A DNA stretch of 50,962 bases, from NCBI GenBank assembly GCA_044356215.1, contig JBIKWQ010000014.1, forward strand, positions 1 to 50,962. The letters are read 5' to 3'. The stretch is from Bdellovibrionota bacterium (lineage in GTDB: Bacteria; Bdellovibrionota_C; UBA2361; OMII01). This document shows positions 12,001-18,000 of this stretch, one piece after another. How positions within the stretch are numbered: the stretch's first letter is position 1; the number at the start of each line of letters is the position of its first letter. The position numbers are program-made.

Positions 12001-15000
12001 GGACCAGACGTAGCCTTGGCGAAGGCTGGTGCGGTTTTTTCCCATCTCGAAAATCGAATATCAACTCAACCTCCACTTTCTCGCTACGGGTAGGTTTTGC
12101 CAGCCTTCCTTAGGGAGCGTTGTTCTCATGATTAAAAGATGGATCTCTAAAATAACTGGGAGAGCTTCAAACGTTGCCGCTAAAACGACTAGTGAGATCC
12201 CTGAGAGATTAGACGATCTACTAAGAACCCCCGGGCGCGCGTGCACCGCTACACTTCATTCAGTTGCTCAGTCTCTCTCTAAGGAGGATTTCTTAAATCT
12301 CGTTCACTGTCCTAGCTTGGTAGGGACGGCTGTTAGAGAGGGAGAGCTCGGCAAATCAAGCGCACGGATCGGCGACGCCTTAAATAATCCTACATTTCTC
12401 TTCACCGCCGCTCAGGTGGCATCTTTTGTCGATGGTGTGTCGATCGAGGAGTCTATCTTCCTTTTAAGAAAAGAAGCTAACAGGATATCAAGTCGTCCGA
12501 GCACTCATTTCGCTATCGGCAGAGCTAAGACCAACGATATCAGAATAGTTGATTTCGCCATATCGCGCTCTCACGCGCTAATTGAAAGCACGATAGATGG
12601 ATATAAGATCTCAGACTGCGACTCAAGAAACGGCACAAAGGTAAATGGTCGCACCATAAAACAGAAACCTGAGCTACTTAGCGACCGCGATACGATCACT
12701 CTCGGTCGATACGAGTTTTCGTTTTTACTACCCGAAACTCTCTATGAGAGATTGCGAGTAGGGAATCAGTCAATCTCAAAATAATTTTCGGCCTCCTAAA
12801 TGTTTGGGGAGGGGAAAACACGGAGGAGCACAGAGGATCTCAGAGGACACAGATAACCCCCCATAATTCCCCATAAAATGGCCGTTCTCTGTGTCCTCTG
12901 CGCCCTCTGTGGTGATAAAGAACTGAGACGCCCTAAGTACATAAAGGGAATCGACCTCACCCTCTCTCCGCATCCGCCGCGCGACGCAACTCTATAACAA
13001 ATGAGCTCCCTTCCCCTACAACGCTACTGACCTTGATAGCTCCATGTAATTTCTCTACCAGCTTCTTTACCGCGGCGAGCCCAACACCGGAGCCCTCAAT
13101 CTTACTCTCACCACCACGTGCGAAGGGCTTAAATATAGAACCCAGATAGTGTTCTGAGATACCTCTTCCATTATCACTTACGACTATCACAGCTCGGCGT
13201 CTTGAGGTCCCCTCAGACATTTTTATAGATACAGATAATGATCTTGATTCATCCCTGTATTTAAGGGCGTTTCCGACTAAATTACTAAAGATCTGATAGA
13301 GCTGTGTCTTGTTTCCAAATACCCAAGGAAGTTTGGCGTCTACATCGATTCGCGCTCCGGCTTGCTCGAATTGCCACGCGAAATCACCTACGACCTCACC
13401 GATTACCTCACTTAAACTAACTGGAGCGGAATCGCGCTCTGTAGTAGAGACCTGCGCTAATTCAAGCACCCCTTTAACTAGAGCCTCTAAGCGAACCACG
13501 GCTTTGTCCATATATTCAAGCGGCTCGTTAAAGTCACCCTCTACACTACTTTTCGTGGCGCTCTCTCTAACGATCTCTAACATCCCCCTTAATGTAACTA
13601 TTGGAGCCTTTAGATCATGCGACAACATGTAGGTTAATTCATTTAAGTCTCTGTTCCTCTCCTCAAGTTTTAACTGCGCGTTTACTGAGGCAGTAACATC
13701 TAAAGTTATAGAGAGCGCCACATATCCATTTAGCTCAGGATCAAAGATGGGAACTGTTCTAGTCTCTAACCAGAGACATAAACCCGAACGGTGATAAAAC
13801 CTGTAGCGCGACTGAAACGATTCACCTGTCGCCACGATCGCCAAGGCTTTCGCTATCGACGCGCGATCATCCTCATGGACATGAGATGTAAAAAATCCGC
13901 CACGCTCATTATTGTATAGCTCTGAGAGCGAATACCCCGTCAGGACCTCCGTATACGGACTGCACCAAAGAACTTTGCCATCTGGATCGTGAATCACGAC
14001 CGCTGCGGCCATATTATCAGTTAGGATCTTATAGCGAGACTCGTTCTCTAGCGCCGATTGCTTAAGGCGTCTAACGCCCTCTGTAAGACGACCAATCGGA
14101 TCTCTAGGCCCCTTATATTGAGCATCGGACCTCTCAACTAATTTTAGTAGCCGCGCTATGCCGATCGCCAGATAAACTAGCACCAAAACAAGCGTCGCTA
14201 TAAAAAACTGTGAGAGCACAGGCATCACACCTTCCCCCACGCTTCGTAGTTCTGGAATTCCGCGTTAAAATCGAGCACTACCTCTTGCATTAACTTCTTC
14301 TGATCGCGCATATGAACGCCGAAATACGACCAGGCATCTTCTAGTAGAGGTGTATGAATTCTCTGATACGCCACCATGTCACGGGTAGCGCCTAATGAAT
14401 TAGCGTGAGTAATCAGATCGCTTAACTTTACTATACTTGCGAGGCTCCCCTGCTCTTGGTCGCTCCACGGCTTATGGTGATCTCCAATAGCGTCGTAGAG
14501 ATCTCTGGAAAAGTTCCACTTCTCCGCGATCAGTTGACCAACCTGAGTGTGATCGAATGGATAGACCGCCTGCTCCGCTTTGATCGATTCAAGCCCATCA
14601 GCTAATCCTTTCTTGATCACACGCTCATAGTTCTCAACGTGTTGTTGCAGAATTAAAAGCTTACCAACATCGTGCATCAGTCCAGCTAGAAAGATCTGAT
14701 CAACAAGTGATGGAATGAGTGATCTCGCCAACGTTTTAGCGGCTATTCCCGTGGCGATGTTGTGCGCCCAGAATTCCACTCTGAGATAATGCCTCACTGG
14801 AAACAATCCCGATAACGCGGTCGCGTTCATCAGGTTTCGCAGCTCAGCGATGCCTATTACATTCACCGCGTCGACTATTGTCTTACTCCCACCACCTCGG
14901 TCATAAAAAACCGAATTCGCGATCTTTAGAACTCGCGCGGAGAGCCCTTCATCGCCCTCGAGTAGGTCAATAAAATCACGCGCCTCCGCATTTGGGTTAG

Positions 15001-18000
15001 TAGCTATCTTAAAAGCCTCCTGAGCAGACCCAGGCATAATTGGAACGGACTTCAATCCGAGAGAGCGGAGGATGCTTTGCCTTAAAGCATCTGCCATAAG
15101 GGTCTCAGGAGATTCTGCAGGAGGTTTCCCAAATTTAAATAGTTTTTTAAGCATATCAACTTATTACTCTATGACCCTGGCGACTCAGACTACTAAGTCT
15201 ACGACTCGACCAGAGTGATATTTTTCTTTAGTTGAAAGGGGCTTAGGCGAGGTTAGGCGCCAGCATGGAATGAATAATTTCAAGCTCTTACCCCTCTTCC
15301 TAATTCCAGGGTATTTGCGATAATCTCAGACGCGCAGTAATATCTCCATGTAATTGGGTTCTAATTAACGCGGCACCTCCCAAACCGCCCTAAATTTTTA
15401 GCCGCAATAAAAACACTTATGGTACCGAACTTGGAAACCCTCTCTAGCTTTCACGACACCCTGGTCCTCGTTGTAGACGATGAAGCCAGCATAAGAAGCT
15501 CCCTAAGTGGGATTTTAAAGGATGAGGGAATATCTGTTATTGAAGCCGCCGATGGGGAGAGCGCGATATCGATGTTAATCGAACGCAATCCAGCACTTGT
15601 ACTACTCGATATCTGGATGCCCGGAATCGACGGATTAGAGACCCTCAAGAAGATAAAAGAGATTAGACCAAACACCCCAGTTGTAATGATTAGTGGTCAC
15701 GCTACCATCTCAACAGCGGTGGCCGCGACCAGACTTGGAGCATCCGACTTCTTAGAGAAGCCTCTAGGTCTTACATCAACGATCGAGGTGGTCCGACGCG
15801 CTCTAGAGATCGCTAAGGAACGCCAGGAGTCAACCGGACCAACATGGGAGAAGATCGAGCCCTCCTCTGTAGGTCCACTACGTCAATCACTCAACTTAAA
15901 ACCGATTGTTTTCGCCAATCAAGTAGCTCGCGGCGCGGCAAGACCTCAAAAGACTATCGCTCACGCGGCGATCCTTTACGGACAGGGATTGCACTCTGGT
16001 AGGAAGAGTGGACTGATACTAGAGCCCCTACCCGCCAACTCAGGAATTCACTTCGTTGGAGTATCAGAGACCACCACAGTACCAGCTCACGTTGATTTCG
16101 TTGAATCAACGGGATTTGCCACAACCGTCCGCTTAGGACACACACAAGCGGGAACAATCGAGCACCTGATGTCGGCACTGTGTGCCTACGGAATCTCAAA
16201 CCTTCTAATTAAATGTAACGGCGAAGTTCCAGTGATGGATGGATCGGCGAACGAGTTCTGTAAGCTTTTTGAACAGGTCGGACTAACAGAGCAGGATGGT
16301 GAGTGGTACGAAATAGCGATTAACGAGACTATTCAAGTTGGTAATGAGAAGGAATGGATCCGCATCGAGCCAGCCGATAGTTTTTCTGTTGATTATACCC
16401 TTAGGTATCCAGCTCCTGTCGGTGAGCAGCACTTTACATTTACTTTCAGCGACCCCGCGTCATTCCGCGCTGAGATCGCCCCATCGAGAACCTTTAGTTT
16501 TGTAAAAGATGTAGGCTATCTTCAGAAGCAGGGGCTAGCTTTAGGTGGCAGGTTCGATAATTTTTTACTGATCGGCACTGAAGGCGCGATTAACGACGCG
16601 TGGCGTTTTCCAAACGAGCCGGTGCGCCACAAGATCCTTGATGCTATTGGTGACCTCTATCTTTTAGGGAGACCGCTAAGAGGAAAAGTCACCGCATGCA
16701 TGACCGGCCACTCTGATAATATCGCGCTGCTTAAGAAAGTTAGAGAGTTGTTGGGGTGATGGTGGGATTATCTGTAACTAGGGGTTACTTTCAACAGCGG
16801 TCAATCCCTGAATAGGCTTTACATGTAGTGGCCGCGCACGTAAACGTCGGTCGTGCTCCTGCTCGTGCACGAAAACGCGAAACGTTCACGTCGACGTTAC
16901 ACGGTGCCGTGCACGAGCAGGTGTACGTTTACCCCCTTTCCGCCAAACACTACACCAGCCAGCCCAAATTTAACGATTTTACACCGTAAATTCGTTAAAA
17001 CTATTTTTAATTTGCATTTTTTAACGAATTTTAGGATTATAATCGTTAAACCCAAGGGACGAGATGACAAACTCAGCGAAACGGATCTCCCAGATTATAG
17101 CCCTACGCAAAAGGTTCTTCGCCTCCAAGGTTGGGAAGGATCAGCTCCTTTCTATGATCGACCAGGCTGAGGTCAGTGAACACGTATACAACTCAAACGC
17201 TATCGAGAACAGCACCCTGTCTTTAGAAGAGACGGCGAAAATATTGCAACAGATTGACCTCGACCGCTTCATTTCGGAACGAGAGATATTTGAGGCGAAG
17301 AATCTGGCTCGGGTCGTTCAATACATCTCTAGCAAGGCGCCTGAGCATCAACTAGACCGTGAGATTATCCTTCTTTTACACAAGATGCTTATCTCAAATA
17401 TTCGAGATGAAGTCGCCGGACGATTTCGCGCACTTAACGAGTGGGTGCGAGTAGGGAATCATATTGGGAGCGCCCCCGCTGATATTGAAGCAGGAATTAC
17501 GGCTTTATTAACTACGTATCATGGTGACTCTAGCGAGCCGATCACGAGTCGCCTCGCTCGTTTTCATCTGGAGTTTGAATCAATCCATCCATTCGTTGAT
17601 GGCAACGGAAGAATCGGCCGCGTACTCGTCAATTACCTCCTTATAAGAGAAGGATATGTACCGATTAACATCGCTTTTGTGGATCGTTCCCGATATTACG
17701 ATGCGTTCAGTGAGTATCATAGACAACAGCGTATCAAGACTATGGAGGAGATAATTTTTCGCGCTCTCACTAATAGCTACCACAAGCGGCTAGCGTATTT
17801 GGAGGGACGCGAGATCATTACTCTGAATGCGTACGCCAAAAAACATAAACTCTCGCATGCGAATCTAATAAATAAAGCCAAACGACAAACTATCGAGGCT
17901 TTTGTTGAGCAGGGGGTTTGGAGGATTGGGGATTAATCCCCGCCCCTCACACCACCCTATCCGCCCCACACCCCAGAAACGTCACAGCTTCATGCACAAC

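Follow-up and report, generated by a model that had tools for sequence, protein, structure and literature searches.

The sole LpxC of a Bdellovibrionota bacterium carries an N-terminal NtrX-type receiver: architecture, sequence-supported descent from an NtrX::LpxC fusion and candidate kinases

Described control of LpxC and the place of the fusion

In lipid A synthesis the committed step is a known control point, with MurA–LpxC in Pseudomonas as one example. Two further modes are described in a review of LpxC regulation, namely proteolysis through FtsH–LapB(YciM)–YejM in enterobacteria and transcriptional control by NtrYX or ChvGI (PMC12444477). The NtrY/NtrX two-component system (Brucella, Rhodobacter sphaeroides and Caulobacter crescentus; PlrP–PlrS–PlrR in Bordetella) has published links to the envelope and to the expression of lpxC (PMC7240162 and PMC12444477); deletion of ntrYX in R. 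sphaeroides raised lpxC mRNA 8.8-fold, and LPS with it (PMC7240162). A DUF4390 protein is given as the third component of the Bordetella system (PMC13001219). In D. vulgaris, the operon DVU2931–DVU2934 contains a kinase, an HD-family (HD-GYP) protein and the NtrC-type regulator DVU2934, which binds upstream of lpxC, its single target; lpxC also stands directly upstream of the regulator operon of the S. fumaroxidans ortholog (PMC3333781).

The protein studied here, a response-regulator receiver fused to LpxC, would act on the same pathway step, with the control element built into the enzyme. Response regulators with enzymatic outputs include CheB, PleD/WspR (GGDEF), RpfG (HD-GYP) and RssB. CheB-type regulators have the same order of N-terminal receiver, flexible linker and C-terminal catalytic domain, and by analogy a common logic of autoinhibition release or phospho-dependent dimerization is likely; the fusion, however, has as its output not a signalling enzyme but one that takes part in the biosynthesis of an essential envelope lipid. 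Its receiver is closest to NtrX, but because AAA+ and HTH_8 are missing the protein can neither bind DNA nor work on sigma-54. As in the D. vulgaris operon, to the extent that its description allows the comparison, there would be a dedicated two-component input to lpxC, with an HDOD protein as counterpart of the HD-family protein, but control there is transcriptional and by separate proteins, whereas here the receiver lies within the enzyme. LpxC is also naturally joined to another domain in the bifunctional LpxC–FabZ, mentioned in bioRxiv 10.1101/2025.10.16.682753, although there a metabolic enzyme is attached C-terminally and here a signalling domain N-terminally. A full-text literature search returned no paper describing a receiver–LpxC fusion, and the words "receiver", "response regulator", "fusion" and "fused" are absent from the text of the regulation review (PMC12444477).

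The receiver–LpxC protein

The window, i.e. the whole 50,962-nucleotide stretch of DNA analysed, belongs to a draft genome (G000; 3.24 Mb, 131 contigs, 96.5% complete). ORF calling placed the 446-amino acid protein in one open frame at 15419–16759 (+). Pfam assigned residues 16–123 (15464–15787, +) to Response_reg (E 7.6e-30) and residues 177–441 (15947–16741, +) to LpxC (E 6.4e-82), and the NCBIfam lpxC model TIGR00325, whose cut-off is 187 bits, gave a score of 231. The LpxC–FabZ model NF009667 was rejected, its match covering the LpxC part only (194 bits; cut-off 465). PF03331 matched once in the entire genome, which also encodes LpxB. Source databases label such fusions plain LpxC or NtrX.

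For the receiver, the best NCBIfam model was NtrX (E 1.8e-37), with Pseudomonas RssB also among the matches (E 5.6e-26), and the best solved relatives were Brucella NtrX structures (4d6x and 5m7n). Identity to a canonical NtrX receiver was 58% (143 bits), against 34% (82 bits) for the next best receiver of the genome, so that the fusion holds its only NtrX-like receiver; the pattern SIRxSLxG[IV]L, typical of NtrX, is preserved in helix alpha1. Residues D20, D21, D64 (the phospho-acceptor), S92 and K114 were kept in 29/29 fusions of the phylum. Of 23 short fusions from outside the phylum, 22 had D64, and D21, S92 and K114 were invariant across a 50-sequence alignment.

The LpxC domain aligned with residues 4–275 of E. 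coli LpxC (4mdt). Residues E248, H249, H404, K405, D408, D412 and H431, kept in all 52 short fusions, correspond to E. coli E78, H79, H238, K239, D242, D246 and H265, and T358 to T191. The fusion stops 5 residues past the equivalent of E. coli position 275 and is without a C-terminal degron tail of the E. coli type. For the LapB zinc ribbon, a model that is unspecific (control positive in 11/14 genomes, including Gram-positives and an archaeon) gave no match in the genome; both points set the protein apart from the FtsH–LapB–YejM scheme. Between the two domains, the end of alpha5 and the linker (residues 124–176; 15788–15946, +) are poorly conserved, with hardly any column at 80% conservation.

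AlphaFold2, run with the 50-sequence alignment, gave a mean pLDDT of 91 and a pTM of 0.71. Helix alpha5 spanned residues 118–137 in the model, 10-residue blocks over residues 131–160 averaged only 69, 61 and 66, and the LpxC domain superposed on solved LpxC structures at 1.3–1.8 Å rmsd. The pTM hints at a preferred arrangement of the two domains. An earlier note on this DNA had described the genome's only LpxC as a receiver fusion with both residue sets intact, two confidently predicted domains and a low-confidence linker, standing head-to-head with a PAS-kinase/HDOD operon; all of this was reproduced. The sole LpxC of this genome is thus a receiver–LpxC protein with intact phospho-acceptor and catalytic sets, and from its conserved residues both halves look functional.

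Relatives and descent from NtrX

To place the fusion among its relatives, 1.84 billion cluster representatives were scanned and Pfam was run on 37 of 150 listed matches. All 15 scanned proteins of 650–736 amino acids contained REC, Sigma54_activat, AAA_lid_14 and LpxC, five of them with HTH_8; 16 proteins were REC + LpxC and one (491 amino acids) was REC + HTH_8 + LpxC. Another five were AAA-LpxC proteins without REC, of which two are N-terminally cut, their AAA match beginning at residue 1–2.

The long forms stood directly after ntrY in all four loci with upstream sequence, and DUF4390 preceded ntrY in both of those whose next upstream gene was scanned. These relatives of 650–736 amino acids are NtrX::LpxC fusions occupying the ntrX slot behind DUF4390–ntrY. 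Their AAA+ module has decayed: the GAFTGA loop, the Walker B glutamate and the arginine finger, all kept in 8/8 canonical NtrX, were absent in 19/19 long forms, whereas Walker A was kept in 17 of the 19. The module, with or without HTH_8, sits where the short forms have their linker.

In a tree of LpxC domains, built by a quick search with SH-aLRT support only, all fused sequences formed one clade against 23 plain LpxC (97) and the phylum an all-short clade (97), and short forms were nested among long ones (P0017 with P0016 at 100, P0024 with P0019 at 92). An AU test, picked after the tree was seen, rejected the long forms as a single clade (delta lnL 568, p 1e-6). Repeated derivation of short from long forms is therefore supported, as far as these sequences allow.

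Unfused counterparts were also found. In 43/80 loci an NtrX-like receiver had plain lpxC upstream of it, at a distance of 2.5–3.7 kb; the four-gene order lpxC–DUF4390–ntrY–ntrX was confirmed in L030, L085 and L073, and three of the lpxC–(DUF4390)–ntrY–ntrX genes in L045 and L057. The S. fumaroxidans arrangement (PMC3333781) matches these clusters. The earlier note had derived the fusion from an NtrC-type activator joined to its own target lpxC. The NtrC family stands, more precisely as NtrX, on the receiver matches, the ntrY-adjacent long forms, the nested tree and the unfused clusters; "activator" was too narrow. Descent from an NtrX::LpxC fusion is accordingly supported at the level of sequence and gene order. 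The ancestral state would have been lpxC beside a DUF4390–ntrY–ntrX system that regulated it; ntrX and lpxC would then have fused, the sigma-54 AAA+ module losing its three functional elements, and AAA+ and HTH may finally have been deleted in several lineages, including the whole phylum, leaving a receiver, a linker of ~50 residues and a complete LpxC.

Within the phylum, 108/110 genomes had one LpxC match each, and in 98 of these 108 the LpxC open frame was 430–526 amino acids, the fusion being judged here by frame length; from other families, 11 LpxC ORFs were scanned and every one contained REC + LpxC. The receiver is retained in at least 36 families, and the fusion is also present in many metagenome clusters.

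Candidate kinases and the role of the receiver

Upstream of the fusion gene and divergent from it lie the genes of a 309-amino acid HDOD/HD-domain protein (14225–15154, −; HDOD E 8.1e-45, HD E 1.5e-8), the first of its operon, and of a membrane-anchored PAS-HisKA-HATPase_c histidine kinase (427 amino acids; 12957–14240, −; ORF and Pfam), which overlap by 16 nt. The 264-bp intergenic region (15155–15418) has a single conserved block, TTGCGA-17 nt-TAATAT (15315–15343); at least 80% of 20 aligned same-genus regions share its hexamers. At 8/12 to consensus the block fell under the threshold of the promoter scan, and we infer that it is a candidate promoter of sigma-70-like type from which the fusion gene would be transcribed. 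Flanking PLD, orf113 and FHA genes are likewise conserved within the genus and family.

The genome also encodes one NtrY (737 amino acids, contig C98) with all five domains (NtrY_N-HAMP-PAS-HisKA-HATPase). As in described NtrY/NtrX systems, a DUF4390-like gene precedes it (24.1 bits, below the Pfam cut-off of 27), but the fusion gene does not adjoin it; an FBPase gene is next and no regulator gene stands beside it. NtrY is single-copy in 102/110 phylum genomes, although no NtrY match at E <= 1e-60 was found in seven LpxC-bearing ones (80–92% complete), and a receiver gene directly followed ntrY in 0/20 diverse loci. The DHp helix consensus is identical among canonical NtrY (61), NtrY adjoining long fusions (3) and phylum NtrY (49).

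The earlier note had assigned the wiring of the enzyme to the PAS kinase encoded head-to-head with it. That this kinase, aided by the HDOD protein, is the sole cognate kinase strikes us as doubtful. The pair adjoins the fusion in this genome and all 33 others of the host's family (f1), and in locus L108 a rearrangement has kept the trio together as a single block, which together point to some functional tie; neither here nor in 14/15 loci elsewhere does the kinase have another receiver gene alongside, and the D. vulgaris operon (PMC3333781) offers a parallel in which a kinase, an HD-GYP protein and a regulator control lpxC. Synteny within one genus or family is weak evidence, however, because the flanking genes are conserved there too. 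Adjacency was missing in all 18 loci from other families, where 8 of 11 scanned loci have the fusion behind purA, and the HDOD–kinase pair is older than the adjacency, since it stands alone in 15/15 loci of other families. The kinase is 25% identical to an NtrY-type kinase, and at positions after the histidine its DHp helix (SHDLKAPIVTLRGM) departs from the NtrY one (AHEIKNPLTPLQLS), whereas alpha1 of the receiver is still NtrX-like. Because the PAS-kinase adjacency is restricted to f1, the docking helix of the orphan NtrY is unchanged and the fusion is the only NtrX-like receiver, NtrY is the likely kinase by descent and docking residues. The PAS kinase is a possible second input; Bordetella PlrR, of the NtrX family, is also phosphorylated by a second donor of unknown identity (PMC13001219), so more than one kinase is plausible.

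A different question is what phosphorylation does. It is possible, though we think it improbable, that it sets the amount or place of LpxC (by proteolysis, or by recruitment to the membrane or division site) and not catalysis. RssB and CpdR mark client proteins for proteolysis, the receiver has an RssB match, the degron tail is missing, and the lack of a LapB match, albeit with an unspecific model, points the same way; the linker, long and unconserved, does not make a fixed contact between the domains obvious. Enterobacteria control LpxC by proteolysis, and in some alphaproteobacteria Lon may do so (PMC12444477). Yet no adaptor or protease partner was identified, the receiver is of NtrX and not RssB/CpdR type, and the pTM suggests a domain placement that is not wholly random. 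Decay of the receiver could follow the stepwise decay of the adjoining AAA+ and HTH in fused relatives, but a leftover that plays no part in signalling, or an appendage with a structural role independent of phosphorylation, is quite unlikely given the near-universal phospho-acceptor set, the retained alpha1 pattern and the breadth of families keeping the domain. An assembly or gene-calling artefact, conceivable for a draft genome, is practically negated by the single uninterrupted frame, the 98 independently assembled phylum genomes and the metagenome clusters.

On balance we favour the view that the fusion is an LpxC-output response regulator, reduced from NtrX::LpxC, phosphorylated at D64 by NtrY and altering LpxC output post-translationally. 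The membrane kinase NtrY would phosphorylate D64, and the phosphorylated receiver would then either dimerize through its alpha4-beta5-alpha5 face or, CheB-like, impose a contact on the catalytic domain or release one. A signal from the envelope or of redox type, sensed by NtrY, would therefore set lipid A flux directly. In family f1, the gene would have moved from behind purA to its place head-to-head with the older HDOD and PAS-kinase pair, which may supply a second phosphoryl input or just share regulation. In lipid A synthesis the committed step is thus probably switched directly by phosphorylation, with its control element sitting inside the enzyme itself.

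The receiver–LpxC fusion and its distribution

The fusion is encoded by a single unbroken ORF of 446 amino acids (window 15419–16759, + strand). Pfam placed a receiver domain (Response_reg, PF00072) at residues 16–123 (E 7.6e-30, 103.8 bits against a cut-off of 30.2) and an LpxC domain (PF03331) at residues 177–441 (E 6.4e-82, 275.5 bits against a cut-off of 27), the latter covering profile positions 1–266 of 268. The protein also passed the NCBIfam lpxC equivalog TIGR00325 (231.4 bits, cut-off 187.25). The genome (3.24 Mb, 131 contigs, 96.5% complete), which also encodes LpxB and sigma-54, contains exactly one PF03331 match, the fusion itself. 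Base composition around the locus showed no anomaly.

When aligned with E. coli LpxC (4mdt, residues 4–275), the LpxC half was identical at E78, H79, T191, H238, K239, D242, D246 and H265, the zinc and catalytic positions of the E. coli enzyme, mapped here onto the 4mdt alignment. Residues E248, H249, H404, K405, D408, D412 and H431 of the fusion were present in 52/52 full-length short fusions (receiver plus LpxC), and the receiver residues D20, D21, D64, S92 and K114 in all 29 fusions of the phylum. The phospho-acceptor D64 was also present in 22 of 23 short fusions from outside the phylum. Invariant columns in an alignment of 50 sequences were D21, S92, K114, E248, H249, H404, K405, D408, D412 and H431. 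A vestigial receiver is unlikely because the phospho-site is invariant over at least 36 families. The earlier note had described the only LpxC of this genome as a receiver fusion with both residue sets intact; Pfam, TIGR00325, the single PF03331 match and the residue counts (52/52 and 29/29) all agree with that description. The protein is a member of both the LpxC family and the receiver superfamily, with a predicted deacetylase function.

An AlphaFold2 model built with the 50-sequence alignment gave a mean pLDDT of 91 and a pTM of 0.71, and its LpxC part superimposed on solved LpxC chains with an rmsd of 1.3–1.8 Å (target TM 0.84–0.96). Helix alpha5 of the receiver is long (residues 118–137), 10-residue blocks over 131–160 averaged pLDDT values of 69, 61 and 66, and the linker (residues 124–176) is hardly conserved. 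Because only 5 residues follow the position aligned with E. coli residue 275, the protein is without the C-terminal tail of enterobacterial LpxC. A search of the genome for the LapB zinc ribbon (PF18073) gave no match; as the model is unspecific (the control was positive in 11 of 14 genomes, including Gram-positives and an archaeon), the absence of LapB is weak evidence.

All 41 relatives' genomes matched the fusion protein; most matches span both domains in a single frame, and contig ends cut a few. Among phylum genomes at least 80% complete, 108 of 110 had a single LpxC match, and the open frame measured 430–526 amino acids in 98 of those 108. The remaining ten frames were of at most 412 amino acids, several of them beginning no more than a few hundred bases from a contig end or being partial domain matches. 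In other families of the phylum, 11/11 scanned LpxC ORFs carried receiver and LpxC domains by Pfam. Outside the phylum, 17 ESM Atlas clusters of at least 50 members had both families in 100% of members, the commonest labels being Binatota and Myxococcota. One genome of the phylum (G082; single contig, 2.3 Mb, 82% complete; locus L225) gave no match for LpxC or NtrY and was at first read as a natural loss of both, a reading that was dropped. LpxA and LpxB are retained and completeness is just 82%, which makes an assembly problem the more probable cause of the gaps; its PAS-kinase ortholog matched as two overlapping pieces over two frames, in the manner of a frameshift.

Descent of the fusion from NtrX

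The best receiver model for the fusion was NtrX (NCBIfam NF051870, E 1.8e-37), and the nearest solved receiver structures were Brucella NtrX entries. Compared with a canonical NtrX receiver, the fusion receiver gave 58% identity (143 bits), against 34% (82 bits) for the next of the 12 receivers of the genome, and its helix alpha1 retains the canonical pattern SIRxSLxG[IV]L. Neither a Sigma54_activat nor an HTH_8 domain was found in the fusion by Pfam, and the full-length NF051870 score was 129 bits, where 600 are required, so the protein descends from NtrX without being an NtrX member. A tree of the receiver domain (129 columns), too weakly resolved to position the fusions against NtrX, was clear only for the canonical NtrX clade (support 97) and for the split from the other regulators of the genome.

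Homologues were scanned for among 1.84 billion cluster representatives, and Pfam was run on 37 of the 150 matches listed. All 15 scanned proteins of 650–736 amino acids (long forms) carried receiver, Sigma54_activat, AAA_lid_14 and LpxC domains, with HTH_8 in 5 of the 15. The 37 also included one 491-amino acid protein with receiver, HTH_8 and LpxC, 16 with receiver and LpxC, and 5 with AAA and LpxC domains without a receiver, at least 2 of which are visibly cut at the N terminus. Fused proteins are named LpxC or "response regulator NtrX" by their sources, under the labels Deltaproteobacteria, Nitrospinota and Entotheonellia. Directly upstream of the long form lies a gene for a 744-amino acid NtrY-type kinase (4/4 metagenome loci with upstream sequence), itself preceded by a DUF4390 gene in both loci whose next upstream gene was scanned, and this position identifies the long form as occupying the ntrX slot. 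Whereas long relatives thus directly follow ntrY in 4/4 loci, the fusion of the window does not: the NtrY of its genome lies on another contig (C98, against C70 for the fusion).

The AAA+ module of the long forms has decayed. The GAFTGA loop, the Walker B glutamate and the arginine-finger motif were absent from 19/19 long forms (5 of them close relatives of one another), whereas canonical NtrX proteins retain all three (8/8). Walker A was retained in 17 of the 19, so nucleotide binding may persist, and in the long forms (proteins P0006–P0029 of metagenome clusters, loci L115–L119) the module may be a nucleotide-binding, non-hydrolysing linker domain. At one locus on a metagenome contig (L118:2685–4802), the long fusion was read as a 493-amino acid ORF whose 5′ part is overlapped by a 151-amino acid ORF on the opposite strand; the full-length frame appears interrupted at this point.

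A tree of 96 LpxC domains grouped all fused domains with five probable fragment rows in one clade against 23 plain LpxC (SH-aLRT 97), within which the phylum of the window was an all-short clade (SH-aLRT 97). Short forms adjoined long forms repeatedly (SH-aLRT 100, 92 and 82), and an AU test, picked after this tree from a quick search had been seen, rejected the long forms as a single clade (delta lnL 568, p 1e-6). The simplest reading is one fusion event, after which the dead AAA+/HTH part was lost repeatedly.

A plain lpxC lay 2.5–3.7 kb upstream of a regulator with a receiver 45–60% identical to that of the window in 43 of 80 unfused loci. Pfam confirmed the order lpxC–DUF4390–ntrY–ntrX in loci L030, L085 and L073 and lpxC–ntrY–ntrX in L045 and L057, the regulators of all five carrying a full-strength sigma-54 domain. 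In L045, a 573-amino acid ORF upstream, considered as the regulator, proved to be an ABC1 kinase; the regulator lies downstream of lpxC. The fusion thus descends from an NtrX::LpxC protein. An NtrC-type activator fused to its own target had been proposed in the earlier note, and the part of that interpretation running from receiver–AAA+–HTH_8–LpxC to receiver–LpxC is upheld by architectures, tree and loci; its assignment of the neighbouring PAS kinase is probably wrong.

Candidate phosphodonors and neighbouring genes

Two genes on the opposite strand form an operon divergent from the fusion gene. The first encodes an HDOD/HD protein of 309 amino acids (14225–15154) and the second a PAS–HisKA–HATPase kinase of 427 amino acids with an N-terminal membrane anchor (12957–14240); their ORFs overlap by 16 nt, and a 264-bp gap separates the operon from the fusion gene. 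A promoter and terminator scan gave counts that did not exceed those of shuffled sequences. The only conserved intergenic block, across 20 same-genus sequences, was a sigma-70-like TTGCGA-17-TAATAT (15315–15343), which would fit unregulated transcription of the fusion, a weak inference.

By tblastn over 20 loci, kinase and HDOD stood beside the fusion in 2/2 same-genus loci and in 0/18 loci of other families. In the phylum tables, the HDOD ortholog was found within about 1–2.6 kb of LpxC, on the same contig, in all 33 other genomes of the family of the window (f1) and nowhere else; in one genome (G005) it adjoins the receiver half of the fusion. Outside this family, the fusion lies behind purA, in the row infB–rbfA–DHH–truB–purA, in 8 of 11 scanned loci. 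The HDOD and kinase genes were themselves adjacent in 15/15 loci of other families, and 14 of the 15 had no strong match to a receiver within 5 kb. The adjacency of the PAS kinase to the fusion is therefore not old, and the HDOD–kinase pair itself is. In a same-genus locus (L108), fusion, HDOD and kinase have been rearranged as one block, and this, together with the family-wide adjacency, leaves room for a second kinase input.

The genome also encodes an orphan NtrY kinase of 737 amino acids outside the window (C98 32655–34865, equal to L114:6656–8866), with NtrY_N, HAMP, PAS, HisKA and HATPase_c domains. It is preceded by ruvA–ruvB and a DUF4390-like gene (24.1 bits, cut-off 27) and followed by FBPase, and no response regulator was found beside it at the C98 locus. 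NtrY was single-copy in 102 of 110 phylum genomes. Across 20 diverse loci of the class, the layout ruvB–(ORF of ∼190 amino acids)–ntrY was present in most, and the gene after NtrY encoded a receiver protein in none and FBPase in 8. The phospho-histidine consensus AAWRxVARRIAHEIKNPLTPIQLSAQRL was common to canonical NtrY (61 sequences), NtrY beside long fusions (3) and the orphan NtrY of the phylum (49). The docking helix of NtrY hardly varies, and the PAS kinase departs from the consensus at most positions after the histidine. Because the adjacency is not old, the NtrY expected by descent is present and the docking surfaces fit, NtrY is more likely than the PAS kinase to be the phosphodonor of the fusion, as judged from sequence. 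The proposal that the neighbouring PAS kinase is the cognate one is thus disfavoured, given an adjacency confined to one family, a DHp helix unlike that of NtrY and an NtrX-type receiver.

Several other genes of the window were recorded. Directly after the fusion gene lies a Fic-domain gene (17064–17936, +) with no match in the same-genus loci L107 and L108; the flanks of its position abut in L107, and it is probably a recent insertion. A 235-amino acid protein encoded 8.5 kb from the fusion gene (25222–25926, −) has receiver and HisKA domains and no HATPase_c match, and may act as a relay of the phosphotransfer or phosphatase type. An FHA protein (12029–12784, +) has a further match, to the cytoplasmic domain of YscD, a T3SS component, and a row of FHIPEP, FliN-like and YscJ/FliF-like genes with several unassigned ORFs (27114–31622, −) lies about 15 kb from it; a FlgO gene is at 21033–21980. 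With a PLD-type, cardiolipin-synthase-like gene (9521–10720, −) and an LPG_synthase_TM gene (24199–25227, +), several membrane-lipid genes stand near the fusion.

Proposed control of LpxC

In its domain make-up, the fusion is a response regulator whose enzymatic output is new. CheB is a receiver–enzyme response regulator, and the architecture of the fusion suggests that it would work like such proteins. In the proposed mechanism, NtrY would phosphorylate D64 of the fusion receiver, and the phosphorylated receiver would alter LpxC output after translation, through dimerisation or through a contact with the catalytic domain that is made or broken. Tentatively, NtrY and a periplasmic DUF4390 partner might read the envelope and phosphorylate LpxC itself, a second, unrelated kinase (the PAS kinase with HDOD) having been recruited in the family of the window so that two signals would reach one enzyme; we regard this as possible rather than probable. 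That phosphorylation controls the stability or localisation of LpxC instead of catalysis is a less likely alternative.

Published studies connect the NtrYX system with lpxC. In D. vulgaris, lpxC is the single target of DVU2934, and in S. fumaroxidans it lies directly upstream of the operon orthologous to that of DVU2934 (PMC3333781). Deletion of ntrYX in R. sphaeroides raised lpxC mRNA 8.8-fold and also raised LPS (PMC7240162), and a 2025 review describes NtrYX as an inhibitor of lpxC transcription in R. sphaeroides and C. crescentus (PMC12444477). In that review, LpxC control comprises proteolysis, localisation and transcription, with no control domain within the enzyme, and the words "receiver", "response regulator", "fusion" and "fused" are absent from its text (PMC12444477). 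In Bordetella, the NtrX-family protein PlrR is also phosphorylated by a further donor of unknown identity, and the system has the DUF4390 protein PlrP as its third component (PMC13001219). A full-text literature search, with subscription journals outside its coverage, returned no paper on a receiver–LpxC or NtrX–LpxC fusion.

Flux into lipid A is set by LpxC, long an antibiotic target, whose control outside enterobacteria is largely an open question. The window adds the detachment of the fusion from ntrY, its phylum-wide fixation behind purA and its move, at the level of one family, beside a second orphan kinase pair. With its phospho-site intact, the fusion is conserved across one phylum and in several more. 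If the proposed control is true, a receiver on the sole LpxC would add a new class of output to two-component signalling and a new control of outer-membrane synthesis, and NtrYX, with its puzzlingly pleiotropic envelope phenotypes, would gain a concrete and possibly ancestral target.
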